Below are positions 5,804 to 46,639 of a stretch of 50,703 nucleotides of DNA, piece after piece. Positions within the stretch are counted from its first letter, which is position 1. Each line of letters starts with the position of its first letter. A program made the position numbers and the translations under genes. The stretch spans positions 1 through 50,703 of the forward strand of contig WRLB01000002.1 in the NCBI GenBank assembly GCA_009777815.1. Direction: 5' to 3'. The stretch is from Bacteroidota bacterium. Lineage in GTDB: Bacteria; Bacteroidota; Ignavibacteria; Kapaibacteriales; UBA2268. Under the pieces are notes generated by a model. That model was not told where the DNA came from, did not search any database, and saw nothing but the letters and a program-made list of their open reading frames with translations.

Positions 5804-5884
5804 TGTCATTCCGAATTTACTTCGGGATGATAAGTATTTTAACAATATTTTGCATCTATTTCAACACGGGGGCTTGCCCCCGTG
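5804..5884. repeat. Intergenic palindromic elements (two hairpins)
   Basis: TGTCATTCCGAATTTACTTCGGGATGA and CACGGGGGCTTGCCCCCGTG. The second hairpin recurs at 17695, 33263 and, degenerate, at 10571. Confidence 0.75.
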
Positions 5885-11395: not shown

Positions 11396-11477
11396 TACTG
11401 CTTTAGCAGTAAACGGATACTGCTTTAGCAGTAAACGGATACTGCTTTAGCAGTAAACGGATACTGCTTTAGCAGGA
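11396..11477. repeat. Tandem array of a 22 bp hairpin unit (3.7 copies)
   Basis: The unit is TACTGCTTTAGCAGTAAACGGA, and each unit contains the inverted repeat TACTGCT/AGCAGTA. There are three perfect copies, one truncated copy and degenerate copies on both sides. Confidence 0.9.
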
Positions 11478-11488
11478 CAAATGTACTG

Positions 11489-17431: not shown

Positions 17432-17531
17432 AGCATTATCTTATTTTTTTTATTAAACTGAAATAACTAATTACAAAAATAATAAAAATATTTGAAAAAA
17501 ACAAATTTTATTTTTTTTAATATTTTTCTAA

Positions 17532-17599
17532 TATGCTGAATTTATTTCAGCATCTACTAATTTTATGCGAGCAGATTCCGAAACAAGTTCGGAATGACA
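17532..17599. repeat. Intergenic palindromic elements
   Basis: ATGCTGAATTTATTTCAGCAT and GATTCCGAAACAAGTTCGGAATGACA. Confidence 0.8.
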
Positions 17600-17606
17600 G
17601 GGATAA

Positions 17607-17686
17607 CCACCCCGTCATTTGTTGAAGCAAATGCCACCCCTCCACGGGAGTGGAACTGTTCCCCTCCCGTGGAGGGGCAGGGGTGG
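17607..17686 (+). repeat. Cloverleaf-like GC-rich element, copy 2
   Basis: Same orientation and architecture as 10485-10563, with the outer stem CCACCCC/GGGGTGG conserved. Confidence 0.8.
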
Positions 17687-17694
17687 TAAATTAA

Positions 17695-17795
17695 CACGGG
17701 GGCAAGCCCCCGTGCTGAATAAGTAGATTCCGAAACAAGTTCGGAATGACAAGTCATTTATCTGTCATTCCGAACTTATTTCAGCATCTACTAAT
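17695..17795. repeat. Intergenic palindromic elements
   Basis: CACGGGGGCAAGCCCCCGTG, GATTCCGAAACAAGTTCGGAATGACA and TGTCATTCCGAACTTATTTCAGCATC. Confidence 0.8.
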
Positions 17796-17810
17796 TATAT
17801 AATTCCTATG

Positions 17811-20603: not shown

Positions 20604-21644
20604 CTACATAAAATATATTACTATTGCTGTAACAACTAAATTTAATATCGCTAATGGCAATAATATATGCCAACCCAAACGCATTAGTTGGTCGTATCTA
20701 AAACGAGGTATAGACCAACGAATCCAAACAATAATAAATACTAATATTGCTACTTTTGATAGTGTAACTATTACTTGCAATAATGCTGTGAGAATTGAAC
20801 CATCGTTCCAATCAACAAAAGGAAGTTGCCAACCACCAAAAAACAATACTACCATTATTATAGATGATGTAGCAACATTTGCATATTCTGCTAAAAAGAA
20901 CATACCGAATCGCATTGAAGAATATTCTGTGTTGTATCCTGCAACGAGTTCTTGTTCGGCTTCAGGGAAATCAAATGGCGTTCTATTTATTTCAGCCAGT
21001 GCGGCAATAAAATAAATTAGAAAAGCAACGGGTTGCAATAATACATTCCACTTCCAACCCGATTGATGTAATATAATATCGTTAGTTCCTAACGAGCCGC
21101 ATACCATAACTACGCTGACAATAGCCATTCCCATAGCAATTTCATATGAAATCATTTGTGCCGAAGAACGAAGTGCACCAAGCATAGAATATTTATTGCT
21201 TGAAGCCCAACCAGCAAGCGTAAAACTATATACGCCAACAGATGTCATCGCCAAAATAAATAGTATGCCGACATTAACATTTGGTGCAATGCCGAGATAA
21301 ATTACTCTGCCGCCAATTTCTATATAATGTGCTAAAGGAACAACAGTATATAATAGTATTGCAACAACAACAGATATAATTGGTGCTATCGCATGAACAA
21401 ATTTATCTGCATCGCGGGGGACAATATCTTCTTTAAAAAACAATTTAAAAACATCGGCGAAGGGCTGTAGCAAACCGAATGGTCCTGTTCTATTAGGACC
21501 CAATCTATCTTGTGCTACGGCGGCTACTCTACGTTCGAGCCACACCGTTAATGCCGCAGTAGTTAATAAATAAATTATAAATACAACACCTTTAATAAGG
21601 GCTTCAATAATGATAAAAAGAGAATCAGGCATATTCTTTAACAA
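20604..21644 (-). CDS. nuoH: NADH-quinone oxidoreductase subunit H
   Basis: LERRVAAVAQDRLGPNRTGPFGLLQPFADVFKLFFKEDIVP plus 8 TM segments. Confidence 0.92.
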   Translation of the reverse strand: MLKNMPDSLFIIIEALIKGVVFIIYLLTTAALTVWLERRVAAVAQDRLGPNRTGPFGLLQPFADVFKLFFKEDIVPRDADKFVHAIAPIISVVVAILLYTVVPLAHYIEIGGRVIYLGIAPNVNVGILFILAMTSVGVYSFTLAGWASSNKYSMLGALRSSAQMISYEIAMGMAIVSVVMVCGSLGTNDIILHQSGWKWNVLLQPVAFLIYFIAALAEINRTPFDFPEAEQELVAGYNTEYSSMRFGMFFLAEYANVATSSIIMVVLFFGGWQLPFVDWNDGSILTALLQVIVTLSKVAILVFIIVWIRWSIPRFRYDQLMRLGWHILLPLAILNLVVTAIVIYFM

Positions 21645-21663
21645 ATATCTATTTCATAAAATA

Positions 21664-21671
21664 CAAAAATA
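21664..21671 (-). promoter_or_regulatory. -7 box for nuoH
   Basis: The minus strand reads GAAAAAATACTATTTTTGTATTTT, 20 nt upstream of the start. Confidence 0.5.
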
Positions 21672-21817
21672 GTATTTTTTCAATAAAAAACATTTTTGGT
21701 AAGCATTATGCCGAATTTGATGCAGTATCTAAATAAAATTAGTTGATGCTAAAACAAATTAAGAATGACTGTTTTTTTAATATTATGCCGTAATTAATGT
21801 TTTTGCAAAATAAAAGT

Positions 21818-21825
21818 TATCTTTG
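21818..21825 (+). promoter_or_regulatory. -7 box TATCTTTG for psd
   Basis: AAAGTTATCTTTGCAAC lies 47 nt before the ATG at 21872 and inside the longer listed ORF. Confidence 0.5.
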
Positions 21826-21871
21826 CAACACATTAGTTAATTTTCATTCAAAAATAGTAAAAATAGATATT

Positions 21872-22537
21872 ATGCTCTCAAAATACGGACTCTCAAATAT
21901 AATTGTAATGGTTTTAATAGCAACAATTATGCTTATCTTGGCTATTCTACTTGCAAAAAAATTATACATAAGTATTCCACTTTTTACTTGTGCTTTTCTG
22001 CTTTATGTATTTACTTTTTGGTTTTTTAGGGACCCCGATAGAACTTTGCCAAGCGAAGCAGTAAATGATAATTCTATAATAATTTCTCCTGCCGATGGCG
22101 TTATTACTGAAATTGTAAAAGAGATAGAACAACATTATTTGCAAGATAGTTCTATTAGAATTAGTATTTTTTTGTCGCCTTTAGATGTTCATGTTAATCG
22201 TATTCCTATAAGTGGTTCGGTGGAGTTTTATAACTATAATCCAGGTAAATACATTATTGCAAATCATCCAAAAGCAAGCGAACTAAATGAGCAATCGCAA
22301 ATAGGCGTTAAAACAGAATATGGAAAAGTGTTTTTTAAACAAATCGTGGGAATGGTTGCTCGGCGATTGGTTTGCGAGTTAAAAGTCGGCGATAGCGTTA
22401 ATGTTGGTGATAGATTCGGTATGATGAAGTTTGGTTCTCGGATGGACATTGCTGTTTCACCTAACACTAAACTCTATGTAAATATCGGCGATAGAGTCAC
22501 CGCCGGCGAAACAATTATCGCAAAATTAGAAAAGTAA
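21872..22537 (+). CDS. psd: Phosphatidylserine decarboxylase (short form)
   Basis: FFRDPDR, SPADG, LSPLDVHVNRIP, ARRLV and the FGSRMD self-cleavage region. The start is set at the internal Met (MLSKYGL...). Confidence 0.88.
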   Translation: MLSKYGLSNIIVMVLIATIMLILAILLAKKLYISIPLFTCAFLLYVFTFWFFRDPDRTLPSEAVNDNSIIISPADGVITEIVKEIEQHYLQDSSIRISIFLSPLDVHVNRIPISGSVEFYNYNPGKYIIANHPKASELNEQSQIGVKTEYGKVFFKQIVGMVARRLVCELKVGDSVNVGDRFGMMKFGSRMDIAVSPNTKLYVNIGDRVTAGETIIAKLEK

Positions 22538-22549
22538 TAAACTTACTTA

Positions 22550-23758
22550 TCACTCGTTATACAATCTTATATTAGTTATTTGTTTTGTTGCTACTTTGGC
22601 GGGGAAATATGCCGCTAATACAGAAAGAAATAATGAAAATATACATATTAATACTACTTCTATAATTTGTAATTTCATTGGAAAAGTAGATGTTATATAA
22701 ACACTGGAATCTATTTCAAATAAATTAAAATTAATCTGCATCAATACAAGTCCAACGCCGACTAATAAACCAATTATTGTTCCTATAAAACCAATTATTG
22801 TGCCTTCTATGATGTAAATATGTGTTATCATTTTGTTTTCGGCACCTAACACTTTTAGTAATGAAATTTCTTGTTTTTTCTCCATTACTGTAAGTGCTAA
22901 TGATGCAAAAACATTAAATATCGCTATTAGCAAAATTAAACTAATTACGCAGAAAACAGCCACTCTTTCCATCTGCATTATACTATAAAGGTCTTTATTT
23001 AAATCAATCCAAGTTAGAGTTGCATATTGTGTTTCAATCAATATTTTGTTAATTAAATCAGTTATTTTTTTAGAATCATTATTAGTTAAAAATATATCTA
23101 AATGGCTAATCATTCCATCGCTAACATTTAGAATCTGGCGAACTATTTTGTAATCGGCATAGCAATTTGTTAAATCATAATCTTTTATACTTGTTTGTAT
23201 AATTGCATTAGAAAACACTTCAATTCCGCTTGGGAGTTGCAAAGTATTAAATGAATTTCTTAGCGAACGCATACTAATTAACTGCATAGTATCATAAATC
23301 GTTCCCTTCAGCAATCTATCTGCTAATGCTATTCCTACCACTATTTCATTACTATCTGTCTTATTACTACCATAAATAAATAATTTTTCATCAAGCAATC
23401 CATCACTATTAGAAATTAAATCTACCACTTCTATATTACTATTATTAACTATTACTGCTTTAGTTTGCAAAATCGGGTGAACACTTTTAATATCGGGCAA
23501 ACTTTTTATTTTTTCTAAAAGATTGCTATCAGTCATAAAATACGCACTTTCATTACTAACTATACGAATAGCAGGGTCTATATCTAAAATTACCTCTTCC
23601 ATAGTCGTTCTAAAGCCATTAAAAATAGACATTACAATAATTAGTGCCGCAACGCCGATAATAATTCCAACAATAGAAATAATTGTTATAATAGAAATAA
23701 AATCAAACTTCCCTTTCGGAAAAATATATCTTAAAGCAATTTTTAATCTAATATCCAT
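22550..23758 (-). CDS. FtsX-like ABC transporter permease (LolC/LolE family)
   Basis: 402 aa with a TM1, large periplasmic loop and 3 TM layout. N-terminus LKIALRYIFPKGKFDFISIITIISIVGI. Confidence 0.85.
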   Translation of the reverse strand: MDIRLKIALRYIFPKGKFDFISIITIISIVGIIIGVAALIIVMSIFNGFRTTMEEVILDIDPAIRIVSNESAYFMTDSNLLEKIKSLPDIKSVHPILQTKAVIVNNSNIEVVDLISNSDGLLDEKLFIYGSNKTDSNEIVVGIALADRLLKGTIYDTMQLISMRSLRNSFNTLQLPSGIEVFSNAIIQTSIKDYDLTNCYADYKIVRQILNVSDGMISHLDIFLTNNDSKKITDLINKILIETQYATLTWIDLNKDLYSIMQMERVAVFCVISLILLIAIFNVFASLALTVMEKKQEISLLKVLGAENKMITHIYIIEGTIIGFIGTIIGLLVGVGLVLMQINFNLFEIDSSVYITSTFPMKLQIIEVVLICIFSLFLSVLAAYFPAKVATKQITNIRLYNE

Positions 23759-23868
23759 AGTATTTTCTACAATATAGAGATAATTTTTGAAATTAAGATA
23801 TTGCTACTTCTAACGCTGTCATGCCGAATTTATTTTTGCATCCCCTTATTTTATGCAGTCAATACAAA

Positions 23869-23935
23869 TTATTTCCACCAATCTAACTCTAATTCTTCGA
23901 ATACGCTGTTTCTTTGCTCGGTGGCAAAAATAATT
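23869..23935 (-). pseudogene. Relic copy of the 3' end of the GH57 gene
   Basis: The reverse complement encodes ...ATEQRNSVFEELELDWWK-stop. Positions 23861-23922 are 62/62 identical to 24862-24923. Confidence 0.8.
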
Positions 23936-24631
23936 TTAAATTCTATACTTATAACCTGCTCTAAAAATACCTAACCTTCCAATACCAAGTTCCATATTGA
24001 ATATATGTTTTTCTCCTATGTCTATTCCAAAAGCGTTTAAATGTATTGCCACATCAAAGAAATATTCGTCATTCCTTGTTGTACTTAAAAAACTATGTAT
24101 TGTTTGTTTTGGCAGTATTTCTTTATCTCTTACGCATAAAGACGCTCCAAAATGAATTCCCCAATACAAAGAAACTTTATTTTTTCTGTAATAAGTGCGT
24201 CTATAATTTCCCATCAAAGCAAAATAATGATTCCAACCGCTACCATCAACTGTATCAACAGGGCGACTACCACCGCCAAATAAAGACCAACCTCCATAAT
24301 AGATGTGGTATCTATCAATATGCATACCCATCCATGACAATGATGCACCTATACTTTTTTTTGAATTAAAATGATAATTGTAATTCAACGCATAAGAACC
24401 CAAATGCCACATTTTTTCATCACCTATGTCTTCGTAGTTATTATAAGATATAAAGCCTGGTGCATAATCTGCAAATAAGAATCTATCTTTGGGATGATCA
24501 AGTGCAATTAAAGGAAACGTACCTACAGCAAAACCAATTTCGTGTTTTGGAATTAAAACCAGTGTATCTGTTTGTGCTTGCAATAAATAAGAAAAAGAAA
24601 CAAAAATTATTGCAAATAATACTTTCTTCAT
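23936..24631 (-). CDS. Secreted protein, probable outer-membrane beta-barrel, function unknown
   Basis: Signal peptide MKKVLFAIIFVSFSYLLQAQ. The sequence has alternating aromatic/Gly-rich strands and ends ...FRAGYKYRI. Confidence 0.6.
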   Translation of the reverse strand: MKKVLFAIIFVSFSYLLQAQTDTLVLIPKHEIGFAVGTFPLIALDHPKDRFLFADYAPGFISYNNYEDIGDEKMWHLGSYALNYNYHFNSKKSIGASLSWMGMHIDRYHIYYGGWSLFGGGSRPVDTVDGSGWNHYFALMGNYRRTYYRKNKVSLYWGIHFGASLCVRDKEILPKQTIHSFLSTTRNDEYFFDVAIHLNAFGIDIGEKHIFNMELGIGRLGIFRAGYKYRI

Positions 24632-24671
24632 AATATCTTTATTTAATTAAATGTTAATATACCTCTTTATT

Positions 24672-24695
24672 AACACGGGGATTAATCCCCGTGTT
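24672..24695. repeat. Hairpin element AACACGGGGATTAATCCCCGTGTT
   Basis: An identical copy lies at 46125-46148 and a degenerate copy at 27388-27411. Confidence 0.8.
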
Positions 24696-24740
24696 AAAAT
24701 TGCCACTTTATTAGCATAATCTTTTAAAAATATATATTTT

Positions 24741-24840
24741 TTTCTAAAATAATTTAGAAATTTCTAAAAATAAACAGAAATTTCTAATTGATAAATAGGT
24801 TTTTCTAAATTTAACTTGCTTATTCAAGTAAAATTTAGAA
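24741..24840. promoter_or_regulatory. Cluster of TTCTAAA/TTTAGAA palindromes (candidate operator array and terminator hairpin)
   Basis: TTCTAAAATAATTTAGAA; the 16 bp perfect palindrome TTTAGAAATTTCTAAA; AGAAATTTCT; and a 16 bp stem TTCTAAATTTAACTTG/CAAGTAAAATTTAGAA with one mismatch. Confidence 0.5.
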
Positions 24841-24869
24841 CTTTATAAATATATGCAAGTTAATACAAA

Positions 24870-26711
24870 TTATTTCCACCAATCTAACTCTAATTCTTCG
24901 AATACGCTGTTTCTTTGCTCGGTTGCGGAGATATAATTTGCATCATTTGGCGATAAATTGCTCTTTCCTTTATATTTTTCGAACAAGTCACATAATTTAT
25001 TAAAATCGGCGTGATGATAAGAAAAACGCTGTTCTGCATAGTCTTTCGCGGAATTAGTGTAAATTAAAAACTGCCAATCAGAAGATTGTAGAAGCAACAA
25101 TTCTTTTAATGCTTGTTTTAGAATTCGCTGTTCGAGTGGATTTAATTTTGCAATTATTTTGTTATGACAATCTTTTATTTTGTCATTCTGAACTTGTTTC
25201 AGAATCCCCTCGTTAGAATTAGGGGATGCCGAAATAAATTCGGCATGACAAGTGTTTTCTTTATCATTTTGCTCTTGATTTAATATCCCTTCAAAAATAT
25301 TATTTAGTCGCAATTCATCGTCATAAATATACTGCCAAGTCCAATTATTACCCGCATTAGACCAAACATCATGATTATTGTTTTCGCCCCAAGAACCCTC
25401 AGGCAAACTTATAACTTGTCGCGGCTTTTGCAAAAATATTTCTTCTGATGCTGTCATCATATTTATATAAGGCGAATTATGCAAGCCCTGACAAACTTTT
25501 CTAATAAATTCCGGACCTTCAAACCACCAATGCCCAAATAATTCCGTATCAAAAGGCAAACAAATAGTTGCTTCTTTGCCCGTTAAGTTCTTATAATAAT
25601 TTGCGGTATTTTCAATGTGATGAATAAAATGATTTGCCTGCTTATCCAATTTATCCCAAATCCAATCAGGATGATATAGCGTTTTATACATCATATCTGC
25701 CTTCGCATCGGTAACACGCCAATAGCGAATGCGAGACGGATAATGCGTTTTATGAAAGTCCAAATAATCAGGTTCAGCAGGATAGCCGATGCTTCCACTC
25801 CACACCTGCATTGATAATTTATGATGGCGAGTAAAACATATAGCCGTTCCATATTCAACCTTTTCGCTCGAACTAACTTCATAAATATTCAATGGCGATT
25901 TATCAAAATTCCAAGGTTCAGGTTTAAATTGCGGCGAATTAATATGAACAAACTTTTCTCTATTATTATCTAAAAACTTTCCAATCGGTTGGCTTCTTTT
26001 TAGCAAATCCTCATCAGTTACAAAATAAAATATCTCATTATCGGCTAATATTTGCTCAACACCTCTCCTTAAATGCTTATGATTAAAGGGATGCACAGGT
26101 ATCAAAGATTTCCACTCGTAAGAAGGACGATAAGCACATTCAGGCAACCAAGTTCCACGTGGATTTCTACCGAAGTGTTTTTTATAATTATTTACTGCTA
26201 ATTTCATTTGCAGATTAACGCTTTTATCGTATCCGAGCAAAGGGAAATATCCATGAGTCGCACCGCAAGTCATTATTTCTATTGCCCCTTTATTTTGTAG
26301 TTCGCGGAGTCCTTTTATTATTGATTTATCATATTTATATATGAAATCATTTTTTCTATTTTGATACCACTCCGCCCACCATTTAGCAAGATAAATGTGA
26401 TGAGCATCATAATTCCAATTCATAAAATTATGATGGTCTTCGAGTGCTGCTGCTGCTTTCTTTTCGCAATACGCAATGAAGATATTTTTAGTATCGGGAT
26501 GTTCCAACTGCTCACATAAAACAGGCGATATATCAAGCGTAATCTTTGGAATTATGCCATCGCCAATAAGTTCATTACACATATTAAGCAGCGGAATATA
26601 ACATTCGGCTATTGCTTCGGTCAGCCAATCTTCTCCGTGAGGCCAAGTTCCATGATGCAGAACAAATGGTAGATGAGTATGAAGTATAAGTATTAGATTT
26701 CCTGCGTGCAT
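24870..26711 (-). CDS. Glycoside hydrolase family 57 (alpha-glucan branching enzyme type)
   Basis: LILHTHLPFV..HG.WPHGEDWL, CGATHGYFPLL, WLPECAY, PFDTELFGHWW and C-terminal LLLQSSDWQFLI. Carries an in-frame repeat-element insertion (see 25181-25250). Confidence 0.9.
   Translation of the reverse strand: MHAGNLILILHTHLPFVLHHGTWPHGEDWLTEAIAECYIPLLNMCNELIGDGIIPKITLDISPVLCEQLEHPDTKNIFIAYCEKKAAAALEDHHNFMNWNYDAHHIYLAKWWAEWYQNRKNDFIYKYDKSIIKGLRELQNKGAIEIMTCGATHGYFPLLGYDKSVNLQMKLAVNNYKKHFGRNPRGTWLPECAYRPSYEWKSLIPVHPFNHKHLRRGVEQILADNEIFYFVTDEDLLKRSQPIGKFLDNNREKFVHINSPQFKPEPWNFDKSPLNIYEVSSSEKVEYGTAICFTRHHKLSMQVWSGSIGYPAEPDYLDFHKTHYPSRIRYWRVTDAKADMMYKTLYHPDWIWDKLDKQANHFIHHIENTANYYKNLTGKEATICLPFDTELFGHWWFEGPEFIRKVCQGLHNSPYINMMTASEEIFLQKPRQVISLPEGSWGENNNHDVWSNAGNNWTWQYIYDDELRLNNIFEGILNQEQNDKENTCHAEFISASPNSNEGILKQVQNDKIKDCHNKIIAKLNPLEQRILKQALKELLLLQSSDWQFLIYTNSAKDYAEQRFSYHHADFNKLCDLFEKYKGKSNLSPNDANYISATEQRNSVFEELELDWWK
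25181..25250. repeat. Nested-palindrome element located inside the GH57 reading frame
   Basis: TGTCATTCTGAACTTGTTTCAGAATCCCCTCGTTAGAATTAGGGGATGCCGAAATAAATTCGGCATGACA has the same architecture as the intergenic copies. It is translated as TCHAEFISASPNSNEGILKQVQND (about aa 487-510). Confidence 0.85.
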
Positions 26712-26778
26712 ATATTTTATTTTAATATAATTTATAGCAATATAGTATTTTTTTAGTATATAATTTTTATTTTTTTAG

Positions 26779-26786
26779 TATATTTG
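26779..26786 (+). promoter_or_regulatory. -7 box TATATTTG for the Bor-like gene
   Basis: TTTTTTTAGTATATTTGTAAAT, 36 nt before the ATG. Confidence 0.5.
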
Positions 26787-26821
26787 TAAATTATTTTTTT
26801 TAATATTGGATATTTAACTAT

Positions 26822-27115
26822 ATGAAAAAACTTATTGTAAGTTTAGTTTGCATCTTTGTTATGATGCTTTTAGTAACTTCCTGTTTTACTCACACTTATA
26901 GTGTTGGTAAAGGAGCACAAACAGGTTTAGAAGTTACAAAGAAAAATTATTACTTGATTTATGGACTTGTTCCAGTAACAACATCAGACCCTACGCAAAT
27001 GTCTGGTGGTGCTTCAGATTATACTGTTACTCACGAATGGACATTCGTTGATGGCTTTATATCTGCAATAACATGCGGTATTTTAAATCCAACAACTACA
27101 ACTGTTAAAAAGTAA
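26822..27115 (+). CDS. Bor/Iss-family-like small lipoprotein
   Basis: Lipobox VTSC. The spacing pattern YLIYGLVP...D...GGA...V......F.DGFISAITCGI..P resembles lambda Bor. Confidence 0.7.
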   Translation: MKKLIVSLVCIFVMMLLVTSCFTHTYSVGKGAQTGLEVTKKNYYLIYGLVPVTTSDPTQMSGGASDYTVTHEWTFVDGFISAITCGILNPTTTTVKK

Positions 27116-27123
27116 CATTAACA

Positions 27124-27157
27124 TAGTGCTACACTGAAAAAGTGTAGCACTATTTTT
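27124..27157 (+). terminator. Rho-independent terminator
   Basis: An 11 bp stem TAGTGCTACAC/GTGTAGCACTA followed by TTTTT. Confidence 0.8.
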
Positions 27158-27173
27158 AAAATTATAATATTTT

Positions 27174-27365
27174 ATGAAAATTATTTTAATTGTAATAGGT
27201 TGCATATTAGTTTTGTATTATTCAATTAGTGTGGTTCAATACATTTGGGATTATTCTATATTGACGGAATATGGCAAGGGTTATGTTTGGGGCAAACTAA
27301 TACTTTTATTTCTTGGGATAGTAATAACTATCGTTGGAGTTAAAAAAAAGAAAAAAAGAATGTAA
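27174..27365 (+). CDS. Small two-TM membrane protein, hypothetical
   Basis: 63 aa with two hydrophobic helices and a Lys-rich tail. No other support. Confidence 0.4.
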   Translation: MKIILIVIGCILVLYYSISVVQYIWDYSILTEYGKGYVWGKLILLFLGIVITIVGVKKKKKRM

Positions 27366-27387
27366 AAACAAATTCTTTAAAGATATT

Positions 27388-27472
27388 AACACGTGGATTC
27401 GTCCCCGTGCTAATGTGTATCATACGTGTTAAAATAATTGTCATACCGTGTCAAGCACGACATAACAGAATA
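27388..27472. repeat. Intergenic palindromic elements
   Basis: AACACGTGGATTCGTCCCCGTGCT and TGTCATACCGTGTCAAGCACGACATAACAGAATA. The latter is a direct repeat of 28231-28264. Confidence 0.75.
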
Positions 27473-27473
27473 T

Positions 27474-28169
27474 TTAATAAATCATTATTCCGCCCGTCCA
27501 ACATTCTACTTTATCATTGATAATTTGAATGACTCCGATGCCATATTCTTTTGCTTCTTTTATTGCATCTTTATCAAAACTTGCCCCACCAATACCTAAA
27601 ATTATCTTATATTTTGCATATTCGGAAAAAAGTTTTCTAAAATTATTTACTTGTTCTGTTGCAAGTTTAATAACATCTTGTATTCGGACTCTGTGCTTTG
27701 TTTCAATGAGGGAAATAGTATCACAATTAGTTAAAACAATATCAAATTCACCTTCTAAATTAAGTGATTTTATTTTTTTATGTTTATTTGTTTCTATGTA
27801 ATGGAATTCAATTCCTGCGAATTTCATATCTTTTTCTAATGAATTATATATCATTTGCTCTGCTGCAAGTCCATTAGAATCGGATATTCCACCGATATTA
27901 CGAGCAAGTTCTTTAATTTTTTTATCAGTTTCAGCAAACTTTTCTGAAAGAAATCTATCGGTTTCAGCAAACTTTTCTGAAAGAAATCTATCGGTTTCGG
28001 CAAACTTTTCTGAAAGAAATCTATCGGTTTCGGCGGATCTTTTATCAGCCGCAATAGACATTTCTTTTATTTGCTCGCGAAGTTCATTTGCTTCTTTTTT
28101 TGATTCTGCAAACATTTGCCATACTTTTTCAAAAGTATAAGTTATAATTTTATTTTCTTCTGACAGCAT
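27474..28169 (-). CDS. Coiled-coil plus PD-(D/E)xK nuclease-fold protein, paralog of 122-736, with an expanded 11-residue repeat
   Basis: 231 aa. It has the same C-terminal core (EGEFDIVL...ISLIETK). The N-terminal helix contains AETDRFLSEKF three times. Confidence 0.7.
   Translation of the reverse strand: MLSEENKIITYTFEKVWQMFAESKKEANELREQIKEMSIAADKRSAETDRFLSEKFAETDRFLSEKFAETDRFLSEKFAETDKKIKELARNIGGISDSNGLAAEQMIYNSLEKDMKFAGIEFHYIETNKHKKIKSLNLEGEFDIVLTNCDTISLIETKHRVRIQDVIKLATEQVNNFRKLFSEYAKYKIILGIGGASFDKDAIKEAKEYGIGVIQIINDKVECWTGGIMIY
27928..28026. repeat. In-frame 33 bp tandem repeat, 3 copies
   Basis: GTTTCAGCAAACTTTTCTGAAAGAAATCTATCG occurs three times with a single A/G difference in copy 3. 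Confidence 0.95.
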
Positions 28170-28230: not shown

Positions 28231-28264
28231 TGTCATACCGTGTCAAGCACGGTATAACAGAATA
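28231..28264. repeat. Palindromic element, direct repeat of 27439-27472
   Basis: TGTCATACCGTGTCAAGCACGGTATAACAGAATA is 32/34 identical to the downstream copy. Confidence 0.8.
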
Positions 28265-28305
28265 TAAAGTTTTGTTTTTAGTGATTCCGTGTGCATACTA
28301 TAATC

Positions 28306-29138: not shown

Positions 29139-29212
29139 CTGTCATACTGAATTTGTTTCAGCATCTCTTAATTTTATGCAAGGGGATACTGAAACAAATT
29201 TGGCATAGCAAG
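29139..29212. repeat. Full nested-palindrome element
   Basis: CTGTCATACTGAATTTGTTTCAGCATCTCTTAATTTTATGCAAGGGGATACTGAAACAAATTTGGCATAGCAAG. Confidence 0.8.
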
Positions 29213-35289: not shown

Positions 35290-35329
35290 AGGATTAATAA
35301 TTTGATGACCTTTATTTCCATATTCTATT

Positions 35330-35394
35330 ATACCGAATTTATTTCGGCATCTCCTCGCATAATACAAGGGATGCCGAAACAAGTTCGGTATGAC
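35330..35394. repeat. Full nested-palindrome element overlapping the 5' end of the lpxK frame
   Basis: ATACCGAATTTATTTCGGCATCTCCTCGCATAATACAAGGGATGCCGAAACAAGTTCGGTATGAC. Confidence 0.85.
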
Positions 35395-35414
35395 GTTTTT
35401 AGAAGTTAAAACTC

Positions 35415-37885: not shown

Positions 37886-39922
37886 ATGAAAATACTGCAA
37901 AAACTTCCCACTAATGTTAATATAATACTGAAACAATATATACTATCGCTAATTATTTATTTTATATTTAGGGTTATCCTCTTTGCAACGGAAATAGATA
38001 GAATTGATAACGATGTTAGAATTATTGACATCTTACATAGTTTTTTATTGGGATTTAGGTTTGATTTAGTGGTATCAAGTTATATTTTAATACTTCCTTT
38101 CCTTCTGATGTCTATTAATGCTATAGCAGGAAAAGATTTCAAACCGATAAGAAAATTCGTATTTCTGTGGTGTTCTATTATTTCTGTGGCTACATTTTTG
38201 GTATCTGCGATTGATATTCCGTTTTTCAATCATTTTCTCGTTCGACTGACACATTCTTCTTTTGATGCACTCAAAGATGGAAACGCTGGATGGATATTGA
38301 GTATGATTAGCGAAGAAACAAGATATTGGATTTTCTTTGCGATTTTTCTTTTAATATCTGCCTTATATGTTCTTATTTCCAATAAAATAATCATTAAATC
38401 GCCTAATAAAGATGATAATAAGATAATAAAAACAAGAAACTATTTTGCTAATGTTTTACTAAATATTGCTGTCTTTTTACTTGGTTTTACGTTAATTTTC
38501 TTCGGAATTAGGGGAAGATTCACCGAAAAATCGCCAATTAGGATAGGAACAGCATATTTTTGCAATAATAATTTTTTGAACCAACTCGGTCTCAATCCTT
38601 CATTTACACTCCTCGCAAGTGCCTTAGAAAATAGTAAAAACAAGAATAAAAACAATAATTTTATGAACGATGATGAAGCAATAAAAAATATACAGCACAT
38701 CCTAAATTTAGACACAAATACCAATAATATTACTCGGAATAACGACCCAATAACTGATATTTACTCTAATCGTAATGTTATTCTAATTATTATGGAAGGA
38801 ATGAGTGCAGGCAAAATGAAAAGATACGGCAATAACAAAAATCTCACTCCATTCCTTGATAGTATAGCAAATATAGGGCTGAAGCCCGATAATAACGCTA
38901 CGATTACTTATACTTTTGATAATACTTTTTCTACCTCTGTTAAGACATTCGGAGGTGTATTTTGCACTTTATTTTCTTATCCTATTGCTCGTGGCAATAA
39001 TATTATGAAAATTGTGCCGATTTTGCAATTTGATGGCTTATCTACCATTTTGAAAAGCCAAAATTACTCTACTATTTACTTTACTACCCATGATGGACAA
39101 TTTGATGGAATTGCGGGCTTTTTATATAATAATAATTTTGAAAAAGTGGTCGAACTATCCGATTATCCGCTAAATGAAGCAAAAACTACTATGGGCGTTC
39201 CTGATGATTTTATGTTTAGATTTTCTCATCTTTATCTAAATGAATTACATCGGAAGGAGCGTCCTTTTTTTGCTACTTTTCTAACTGGGAGCGACCATCT
39301 TCCTTATTATATTCCTAAATATTTTAAGCCGAATAATAACGAAATTAAGTATCAAGCAACCGAATATGCTGACTGGTCACTCCGTCTATTTATGCAGGAA
39401 GCACAGAAGCAACAATGGTATAACAATACGCTTTTTATTTTTGCGGCAGACCACGGCACAGCCATTGATGCGACTTATCCGATGTCAATTACGCATTATC
39501 ATATTCCTTTTATTATATTTATTCCGAATGCAAAGGAGCAACAGAATGAGCAATTATCTGATTCTATCTTCACTAATATAGCATCTCAAGTGGATATAGC
39601 ACCAACTATTCTATCGCTGTTAGGAATAAATTATCAAAATAGTTCTTTAGGGCTTAATTTATTCAAAGAACACAGGAAATACGCAGTCATGGACGCTACT
39701 GACGATTATGCAGTTATTAGCAAAAATTATCTGATGATTGCAAAAAATAACGAAGAAAAGCAACTCTTTTACTACTTAAATAAAGATAAAAACAACTACG
39801 CAACCGCCAAGCAAAATGTGGTAGCAGAAATGGATTTATATGCTCGTTCTTACTTTCAGGTTCTTGATTATACATTAAGAAAAAAGAAAAATCAATTATA
39901 TAATCGGAAAACCGATTTATAA
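37886..39922 (+). CDS. LTA synthase/sulfatase-family membrane phosphotransferase
   Basis: Five N-terminal TM segments, then an alkaline-phosphatase-superfamily domain (NVILIIMEGMS, GSDHLPY, FAADHG). The start is set at MKILQKL. Confidence 0.85.
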   Translation: MKILQKLPTNVNIILKQYILSLIIYFIFRVILFATEIDRIDNDVRIIDILHSFLLGFRFDLVVSSYILILPFLLMSINAIAGKDFKPIRKFVFLWCSIISVATFLVSAIDIPFFNHFLVRLTHSSFDALKDGNAGWILSMISEETRYWIFFAIFLLISALYVLISNKIIIKSPNKDDNKIIKTRNYFANVLLNIAVFLLGFTLIFFGIRGRFTEKSPIRIGTAYFCNNNFLNQLGLNPSFTLLASALENSKNKNKNNNFMNDDEAIKNIQHILNLDTNTNNITRNNDPITDIYSNRNVILIIMEGMSAGKMKRYGNNKNLTPFLDSIANIGLKPDNNATITYTFDNTFSTSVKTFGGVFCTLFSYPIARGNNIMKIVPILQFDGLSTILKSQNYSTIYFTTHDGQFDGIAGFLYNNNFEKVVELSDYPLNEAKTTMGVPDDFMFRFSHLYLNELHRKERPFFATFLTGSDHLPYYIPKYFKPNNNEIKYQATEYADWSLRLFMQEAQKQQWYNNTLFIFAADHGTAIDATYPMSITHYHIPFIIFIPNAKEQQNEQLSDSIFTNIASQVDIAPTILSLLGINYQNSSLGLNLFKEHRKYAVMDATDDYAVISKNYLMIAKNNEEKQLFYYLNKDKNNYATAKQNVVAEMDLYARSYFQVLDYTLRKKKNQLYNRKTDL

Positions 39923-40109
39923 ATCGGAAAAGCAATTATATAATCGAAAAAGCAATTATATAATTGAAAAAGCAATTATATAATTGAAAAAGCAATTATA
40001 TAATTGGAAATTGCGTATTATTATTCAAAAATCAATTATATAAATCGGAAATTGCGTATTATAATGCAATTTTCAATTATATAATTGGTTTACCGATTAT
40101 ATAATTGGT
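39889..40109. repeat. Array of about 11 units phased every 20 bp, built on the perfect palindrome CAATTATATAATTG
   Basis: AAAAGCAATTATATAAT(T/C)G(A/G) occurs as four consecutive units at 39929-40008, with variant or degenerate units on both sides, including the 16 bp palindrome CCGATTTATAAATCGG that spans the stop codon of the preceding gene. Confidence 0.9.
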
Positions 40110-40249
40110 TTTTTGGTATTAAAATCGCTTAAACAACAGATAAATAGGGGAATTGGTAAAAAAATAGCAAAAACGTTACTAATTTTGTAATTTTTTCTTA
40201 TTTTTGTAATTACTTTTACTATATTCAGTATATTTATTGAACTAATTCT

Positions 40250-46457: not shown

Positions 46458-46506
46458 ATGTTAAGTGTAAAAAACAAAAAACAATAAGTTTAACGTTTCA
46501 CAAATT

Positions 46507-46514
46507 CAAAAATA
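46507..46514 (-). promoter_or_regulatory. Full TTTG-N20-TATTTTTG promoter for tRNA-Leu
   Basis: The reverse complement of 46505-46550 reads TTTGGAAATTAGAAATAAAAAAGTTATTTTTG. The box lies 50 nt upstream of the tRNA 5' end. Confidence 0.55.
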
Positions 46515-46639
46515 ACTTTTTTATTTCTAATTTCCAAATTTTTTATTTTTTTCACAGAAATAATGTTTGTTTAATAAAATAACGTATTTTAAACAAGTAA
46601 ATATTAGAAAATCTTTTTTAAAATTATATAATTTCAATA

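Follow-up and report, generated by a model that had tools for sequence, protein, structure and literature searches.

A perfect 62-bp duplication of a GH57 gene tail brackets one outer-membrane-protein-like gene in an Ignavibacteria-like bacterium: a possible Campbell-type insertion-duplication

In contig WRLB01000002.1 of the Bacteroidota assembly GCA_009777815.1 (Ignavibacteria, Kapaibacteriales), the 3' end of a gene for a glycoside hydrolase of family 57 (GH57) is present twice as a perfect 62-bp direct repeat. The two copies bracket 939 bp (23923-24861), which hold a single gene for a predicted outer-membrane protein (OMP) and the spacer upstream of it. The window analysed here comprises positions 1 to 50,703 of this contig, and all coordinates refer to it. 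All genes of the locus lie on the minus strand and, in the order of transcription, the locus consists of the GH57 gene, a 230-nt AT-rich spacer, the open reading frame (ORF) of 231 codons for the OMP-like protein, 13 nt, the orphan gene tail, a unit of a dispersed repeat and a lolE/FtsX-like gene. Our preferred reading, held tentatively and with somewhat less than even confidence, is that of a lineage-specific, non-autonomous insertion-duplication of the Campbell type at the 3' end of the GH57 gene. There is no sign that the segment is still moving.

The repeat copies occupy positions 23861-23922 and 24862-24923, are identical at 62/62 positions and are offset by exactly 1001 bp; a comparison within the window bore out what a preliminary description of this DNA had stated on these points. 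That description had also taken the right copy (24862-24923, minus strand) for the true 3' end of the GH57 gene, rightly so, as this copy is in frame with the GH57 ORF and relatives have tails homologous to its own (...ATEQRNSVFEELELDWWK). It comprises the last 17 codons, the TAA stop (24870-24872) and 8 nt downstream and, because the repeat thus covers the gene tail, the stop and a short stretch beyond it, the target gene is restored. The left copy (23861-23922, minus strand) is an orphan duplicate of this tail that directly abuts a unit of the dispersed repeat REP-A. It had been described as encoding 18 residues plus the stop and as abutting the stop codon of the OMP-like gene. Its orphan nature holds. 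It begins 13 nt past that stop and is non-coding, being out of frame with the preceding 231-aa ORF and contained in no ORF of at least 40 aa on the minus strand.

With up to three mismatches allowed, the 62-mer occurs in the window only in these two copies, where 0 are expected (100 shuffles). Within the window it is therefore not the multi-copy dispersed repeat that the preliminary description had named as a result that would refute its proposal. In blastn the pair stretches to 88 nt at 92% identity (23852-23936 versus 24852-24939), so that the weaker similarity of about 15 bp reported on both sides is indeed present, but it is barely above chance (p ~0.03 upstream and ~0.06 downstream, from simulation with random window segments). 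Since the flank similarity is only marginal, we regard 62 nt as the core of the repeat and its edges as fairly sharp. The idea that the end of a REP-A unit is common to both flanks, by which the direction of the event would have been fixed, was accordingly demoted to a hint, the flank p being only ~0.06. The RNA fold of the orphan tail is no more stable than that of shuffled sequence (z = −0.04).

The same two-copy arrangement is found in two other, independent metagenome assemblies, one of which, assembled at k=141, spans both copies; it is therefore not an assembly artefact. One is a JGI contig (L001) with 99.6% identity along 4.7 kb, the other a megahit k141 contig from ENA (L002). A mis-join across a k-1 overlap in a de Bruijn graph had to be considered, as assemblers are commonly run at k=63, for which k-1 is 62. 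Not only do both other assemblies share the structure, however, but the k141 contig reads through both copies and the whole interval between them, and in it two synonymous differences (GAG to GAA, TTA to TTG) set the GH57-side copy apart from the orphan. The copies hence represent distinct loci, and L001 and L002 together leave the artefact with practically no chance. The orphan copy is unchanged in all three assemblies, and the pair is perfect in two of the three. All three near-identical assemblies are filled, that is, they contain the OMP-like gene. Exact-protein look-up of the OMP returned matches only in the two near-identical filled contigs, and the corresponding look-ups of the GH57 and lolE-like proteins returned no record. 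The structure is confined to one tight strain cluster. L001 carries an N at 15 positions, which are probably polymorphic sites.

Relative to the window, the differences in L002 fall into two clusters, one within the lolE-like gene (23020-23141) and the other from 24637 to 24888, and the cargo gene shows one difference in 696 nt. The second cluster contains five substitutions around a GC hairpin and three differences in and next to the GH57-side repeat. Within it, 156 nt at 24702-24857 are also replaced by 34 unrelated nt. Clustered in this way, the differences look as if recombination had brought in tracts from a more divergent relative.

The bracketed gene (23936-24631, minus strand) encodes a protein of 231 aa with a signal-peptide-like N-terminus. 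It is the only ORF between the repeats, and the earlier observation of a single OMP-like cargo accompanied by no integrase was correct. The protein itself has no Pfam match above threshold, and its family is uncharacterised; weak matches to OMP_b-brl appear in 5 of 25 family members, with a best E-value of 0.0012. The AlphaFold2 model (pLDDT 84) shows an N-terminal helix followed by strands throughout, forming an all-beta barrel. The best Foldseek matches in the Protein Data Bank are Ail, the OmpA transmembrane domain (OmpA-TM) and OmpX, at E-values of 5e-4 to 5e-3 and a probability of 1.0, with TM-scores of only 0.37-0.62. On the strength of this model the cargo is predicted to be a small outer-membrane beta-barrel similar to OmpX, Ail and OmpA-TM, and the label of a signal-peptide, beta-barrel-like gene given to 23936-24631 from the letters alone can be upheld as a prediction.

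The cargo family is small. A word-indexed search found 26 proteins, and among 1.84 billion sequences there were 257 cluster representatives at E ≤ 1e-3 and 14 at ≤ 1e-30. The nearest relative is only ~61% identical. Homologues include two proteins named by NCBI as coming from metagenome-assembled genomes (MAGs) of Bacteroidales, and their gene neighbourhoods are unrelated. This distribution is consistent with an accessory gene passing from genome to genome. The possibility that the cargo is a recurrent repeat-flanked cassette was rejected, as five loci of cargo homologues have neither flanking direct repeats of this kind of at least 18 nt nor a GH57-tail peptide. The preliminary description had proposed that the composition of the insert be compared with that of its flanks. 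The comparison gave no foreign signal: GC content (0.319), GC content at third codon positions (GC3, 0.211) and codon-usage distance (0.76) lie inside the range of the other 32 genes of the window, and the cargo gene bears no mark of recent foreign origin.

Loci with relatives of the GH57 gene (L003-L006, L012-L017, L021 and L022) were collected by scans of genomes and metagenomes and by a homologue search. The GH57 protein is 85% identical to that of L012, a 42-aa insertion aside, and is full length in comparison with its relatives. Downstream of those with 57-85% amino acid identity, which come from several metagenome contigs and an Ignavibacteria MAG, lie unrelated genes, among them genes for a cation-efflux protein, a polysaccharide flippase, a vWA-like protein, gcvH and an esterase. 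Relatives of the lolE-like gene are preceded by dapB, rpoA or pgi. No second copy of the GH57 tail is present in the four closest full-length GH57 relative loci. As both the cargo and a second tail are missing from the relatives at 76-85% identity, the structure arose within this lineage.

An empty site, in which the GH57 tail would be followed by the lolE side with no OMP-like gene between them, was not found among the relatives examined. This search is weak evidence either way because the gene order around the GH57 and lolE-like genes is scrambled in every relative at ≤85% amino acid identity. Compared with window positions 21000-27500, the order is completely different in L003, L012, L013 and L018-L022 (64-85% amino acid identity), an unusually fluid synteny for housekeeping genes.

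Of the features expected of an integrative element, the locus shows the flanking repeats that cover the 3' end of the target and shows neither an integrase of its own nor a distinct composition. Flanking repeats combined with missing integration genes are also what characterises a cis-mobilizable element (CIME), and a contiguous segment duplicated as perfect direct repeats, with the target restored (the GH57 gene is full length), is what a Campbell-type event leaves behind. The 50.7-kb window is otherwise made of housekeeping genes. An origin from a plasmid, phage or virus was rejected, since the island DNA had no match in a plasmid collection, the cargo protein had none in a phage collection, and viral contigs contained no match to a 38-mer from the repeat core, to the GH57 C-terminus or to the cargo family. 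A transposon, an insertion sequence or a miniature inverted-repeat transposable element (MITE) was likewise dismissed, as no terminal inverted repeats pair the insert ends and the duplication measures 62 bp, whereas target-site duplications of transposons and MITEs are about 2-15 bp. Also discarded was a diversity-generating retroelement, the repeats being identical and the window ORFs of at least 120 aa containing no reverse transcriptase domain. The integration of the attL/attR type suggested in the preliminary description is therefore supported in its geometry, with an intact target, a displaced orphan tail and one bracketed gene, but the tests for mobility were negative or uninformative.

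How might the structure have formed? A circular DNA carrying the same 62-bp tail together with the cargo would have met the chromosome, and a single reciprocal crossover between the two inside the tail would be a one-step route to the order body, tail, insert, tail. The copy beside the gene body would keep the GH57 gene intact, and the other would be left as a non-coding orphan joined to the REP-A unit and the lolE-like gene. Both the circular intermediate and the direction of the event are what we infer from this geometry. Since the segment encodes no recombinase, the crossover would have been the work of either the host's homologous recombination or an enzyme provided in trans. Uniqueness of the repeat in the window, restoration of the target, fairly sharp edges, a length in keeping with known att repeats, occurrence in three independent assemblies, an accessory-type cargo and the lack of cargo and second tail in relatives all count for such an insertion-duplication and make it our choice among the readings, albeit a cautious one. 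Long perfect direct repeats are a substrate for recombinational deletion of the intervening DNA, and 62-bp perfect repeats lying 1 kb apart should allow recombination of the RecA type to delete the OMP gene cleanly. That tail and cargo together constitute a minimal recombinase-free cassette, a 1001-bp circle looped out between the 62-bp repeats, taken up by related cells and re-inserted at the GH57 tail through host recombination alone, so as to spread a surface-protein gene in the population with the target gene restored each time, appears very unlikely.

Several observations weigh against a Campbell-type insertion. Neither an empty site nor a circular junction nor a second insertion locus was found, and the window's ORFs of at least 120 aa contain no domain of an integrase, recombinase, transposase or reverse transcriptase. 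The origin of a circle made of tail plus cargo lacks an explanation. The composition and codon usage of the cargo are native. Moreover, the repeat equals this lineage's own tail at every synonymous site, while the tails of relatives at 83-85% identity differ at many positions, so that the 'attP' tail was not brought by a widely roaming element, and such an element bearing an old mimic of the GH57 tail is an unlikely source. Going by these codons, the second copy would have been made recently from the lineage's own gene, or else both copies may have been homogenised by gene conversion. Finally, the GH57-to-OMP spacer of L002 resembles an ordinary intergenic region and, if the L002 tract comes from a divergent relative, the OMP gene follows GH57 in that relative too, which suggests that the adjacency may be older than the perfect repeat.

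Much of this fits the main rival, which is less probable in our view though it deserves serious attention. In it GH57 followed by OMP is the native gene order, and the orphan is a secondary copy left by a local rearrangement that involved neither a circle nor an element. Such a scar could have come from a partial duplication, from a second GH57 copy that was then mostly deleted or from a template switch at the breakpoint that joined the lolE block. The native composition of the cargo, the complete agreement of the orphan with the lineage's own synonymous codons and the L002 allele, with its ordinary short REP-containing spacer and with clustered differences that imply a divergent donor of the same adjacency, all speak for it. 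The gene order of the clade is so fluid that breakpoints must be common, REP elements lie at the edge of the orphan, and weak similarity beyond the core is what an older, longer duplication homogenised in its centre would leave. On the other hand, a scar requires two or more events, or else 62-90 nt must have been copied and pasted over 0.9 kb in an unusual manner. Apart from the tail, nothing left of a GH57 gene adjoins the orphan, and an intermediate state is seen in no relative.

Two further explanations keep the notion of a functional or formerly functional element. A decayed integrative and conjugative element (ICE), integrative and mobilizable element (IME) or prophage at the GH57 3' end, which kept attL and attR, lost its integrase and transfer genes and might still be moved by the integrase of a related element, is improbable. 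The locus does match the definition of a CIME in that flanking repeats include the 3' end of the target and integration genes are absent (PMC5704250), and a 62-bp repeat lies at the top of the 8-60 bp range of att repeats given there. However, none of the genes that were read on the downstream side of GH57 in seven relative loci, only some of which were scanned with Pfam, has a recombinase-like product, and the phage, plasmid and viral collections gave no matches. With only 939 bp left and the cargo stop 13 nt from one repeat, the deletions would need to have been very tidy; the tail copy also bears the lineage's own synonymous codons, and no inverted-repeat core was seen in the 62-mer by eye, a formal scan not having been run. 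A still poorer candidate, and a very doubtful one, is an on/off cassette whose repeats are maintained for a reversible or programmed loss of the surface-protein gene, as in antigen or receptor variation. It would agree with a predicted surface-exposed barrel, with a repeat that is perfect in two assemblies and an orphan unchanged in three, and with an upstream spacer that varies between strains. Yet a recombinase is absent, a deletion between direct repeats can be reversed only by re-integration of the circle, and no deleted variant was seen. The conservation of the orphan, based on only three near-identical strains in which about one change is expected, carries no statistical weight.

Among known systems, the locus has the outline of islands, IMEs and prophages that tyrosine recombinases place in the 3' ends of tRNA or housekeeping genes: gene body, repeat, cargo, repeat. 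Elements that target gene 3' ends without disrupting them have att repeats of 8-60 bp (PMC5704250), to which the present repeat comes close. Unlike such islands, the segment has no integrase, excisionase or other element gene, is not foreign in composition and measures ~1 kb instead of several kb or more. CIMEs, the decayed remnants of ICEs and IMEs that keep attL and attR and lack integration genes (PMC5704250), share with it the flanking direct repeats, one of which includes the 3' end of an intact target, and the absence of integration and transfer genes. It differs from them in consisting of 0.94 kb with one gene, in native composition and in the host-lineage synonymous codons of its repeat; there is no evidence of excision, and no cognate integrase-bearing element was seen at the GH57 target in any relative. 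With transposons and MITEs it has in common that target sequence is directly duplicated at both ends of the insert, but it has no terminal inverted repeats, no transposase and a much longer duplication. In Campbell integration, as used with suicide vectors, the insert ends up between two perfect direct repeats of the segment that it shares with the chromosome, and recombination between the repeats can revert the event. Integration of a circular DNA in this manner gives exactly the product seen here; unlike an integrated suicide vector, however, the segment contains no replicon or vector-like sequence. At 62 bp, the repeat is close to the minimum length at which RecA recombination is efficient.

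The target itself (24870-26711, minus strand) is an intact gene for a GH57-family, branching-enzyme-like protein of 613 aa, in which Pfam recognises Glyco_hydro_57 (PF03065, E 4e-38) and the branching-enzyme C-terminal domain BE_C (PF09210, E 2e-20). Within it lies a complete palindromic REP-A element in frame (25161-25289, with the REP-A pair at 25181-25250), which adds 42 aa (...GILNQEQNDKENTCHAEFISASPNSNEGILKQVQNDKIKDCHNKII...) to the linker between the catalytic and C-terminal domains and is absent from the relatives at 83-85% identity. This in-frame insertion resembles the in-frame Rickettsia palindromic elements (PMC10969869). In L001, one extra G at window position 26094 splits the GH57 gene into products of 209 and 378 aa, which points either to a sequencing error or to an inactivated enzyme in that population. 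On the other side of the structure, a REP-A half-unit (23817-23860, plus strand) separates the left repeat copy from the downstream neighbour, a lolE/FtsX-like gene for an ABC permease (22550-23758, minus strand) with Pfam matches to FtsX and MacB_PCD, whose homologues are named lipoprotein-releasing system permease by their sources.

The AT-rich spacer that separates the stop of GH57 from the start of the OMP gene (24632-24861, minus strand) contains an AT hairpin with a 16-bp stem (24803-24840), a perfect 28-nt GC hairpin (24670-24697) and, at 24756-24765 and 24776-24785, two perfect AGAAATTTCT palindromes. In the window as a whole the AGAAATTTCT 10-mer has three copies, where 0.25 would be expected, and the spacer holds two of them, 20 nt apart. 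Both fall, as does the AT hairpin, inside the 156-nt block that is replaced in L002, and this strain-variable block may be an operator array confined to some strains. The hairpin and the palindrome-rich control region of the preliminary description are thus present, but the hairpin and part of the palindromic region belong to genome-dispersed families and are not specific to the island. Scans for promoter and terminator consensus sequences gave no more sites than in shuffles, and a search of 23600-25100 for known RNA families returned only sub-threshold chance matches.

The GC hairpin belongs to a dispersed family of the form TTAACACGGGG-N6-CCCCGTGTTAA, with six copies in the window (at 5859, 17689, 24668, 27384, 33257 and 46121). 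REP-A (TGTCATnCCGAAnTTnTTTCGGnATC...) is represented by 25 half-copies, often arranged as palindromic pairs of ~90 nt; it is present in L012 and L013, the relatives at 84-85% identity, and absent from more distant ones. The two families fill many intergenic regions, for example at 2758, 14631, 17529-17800, 29140-29210 and 35326-35395.

Elsewhere in the window, two paralogous genes (122-736 and 27474-28169, both on the minus strand) share ~75% DNA identity and have no Pfam match. The latter contains three 33-nt tandem repeats (FAETDRFLSEK three times) and is flanked on both sides by REP hairpins in the same orientation (27439-27473 and 28231-28265). It was considered as a second gene flanked by repeats and set aside, as these repeats are copies of a dispersed REP hairpin and not a gene tail. 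A 50-nt AT-rich sequence found beside the other paralogue (75-123) recurs at 92% identity beside a tRNA-Leu gene (46503-46552). Between genes for a sulfatase-like protein and an M1 peptidase, positions 39873-40150 hold a dense array of a 20-nt unit (CAATTATATAATCGAAAAAG and variants) with at least seven direct copies and an inverted set. At 11396-11483, just 3' of a CheB-like gene, a 22-nt unit that contains a palindrome (TACTGCTTTAGCAGTAAACGGA) is repeated in tandem about 3.5 times.

Att-like repeats alone do not prove a mobile island, and the present case calls for this caution. If the structure is what it appears to be, it would represent a very small and clean natural insertion-duplication at the 3' end of a gene, made with no recombinase of its own. 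An uncultivated Ignavibacteria-like bacterium would then carry a surface-protein gene that could be cleanly deleted by recombination between its repeats and, if the circle and an empty site were real, the gene would probably spread by host recombination alone.

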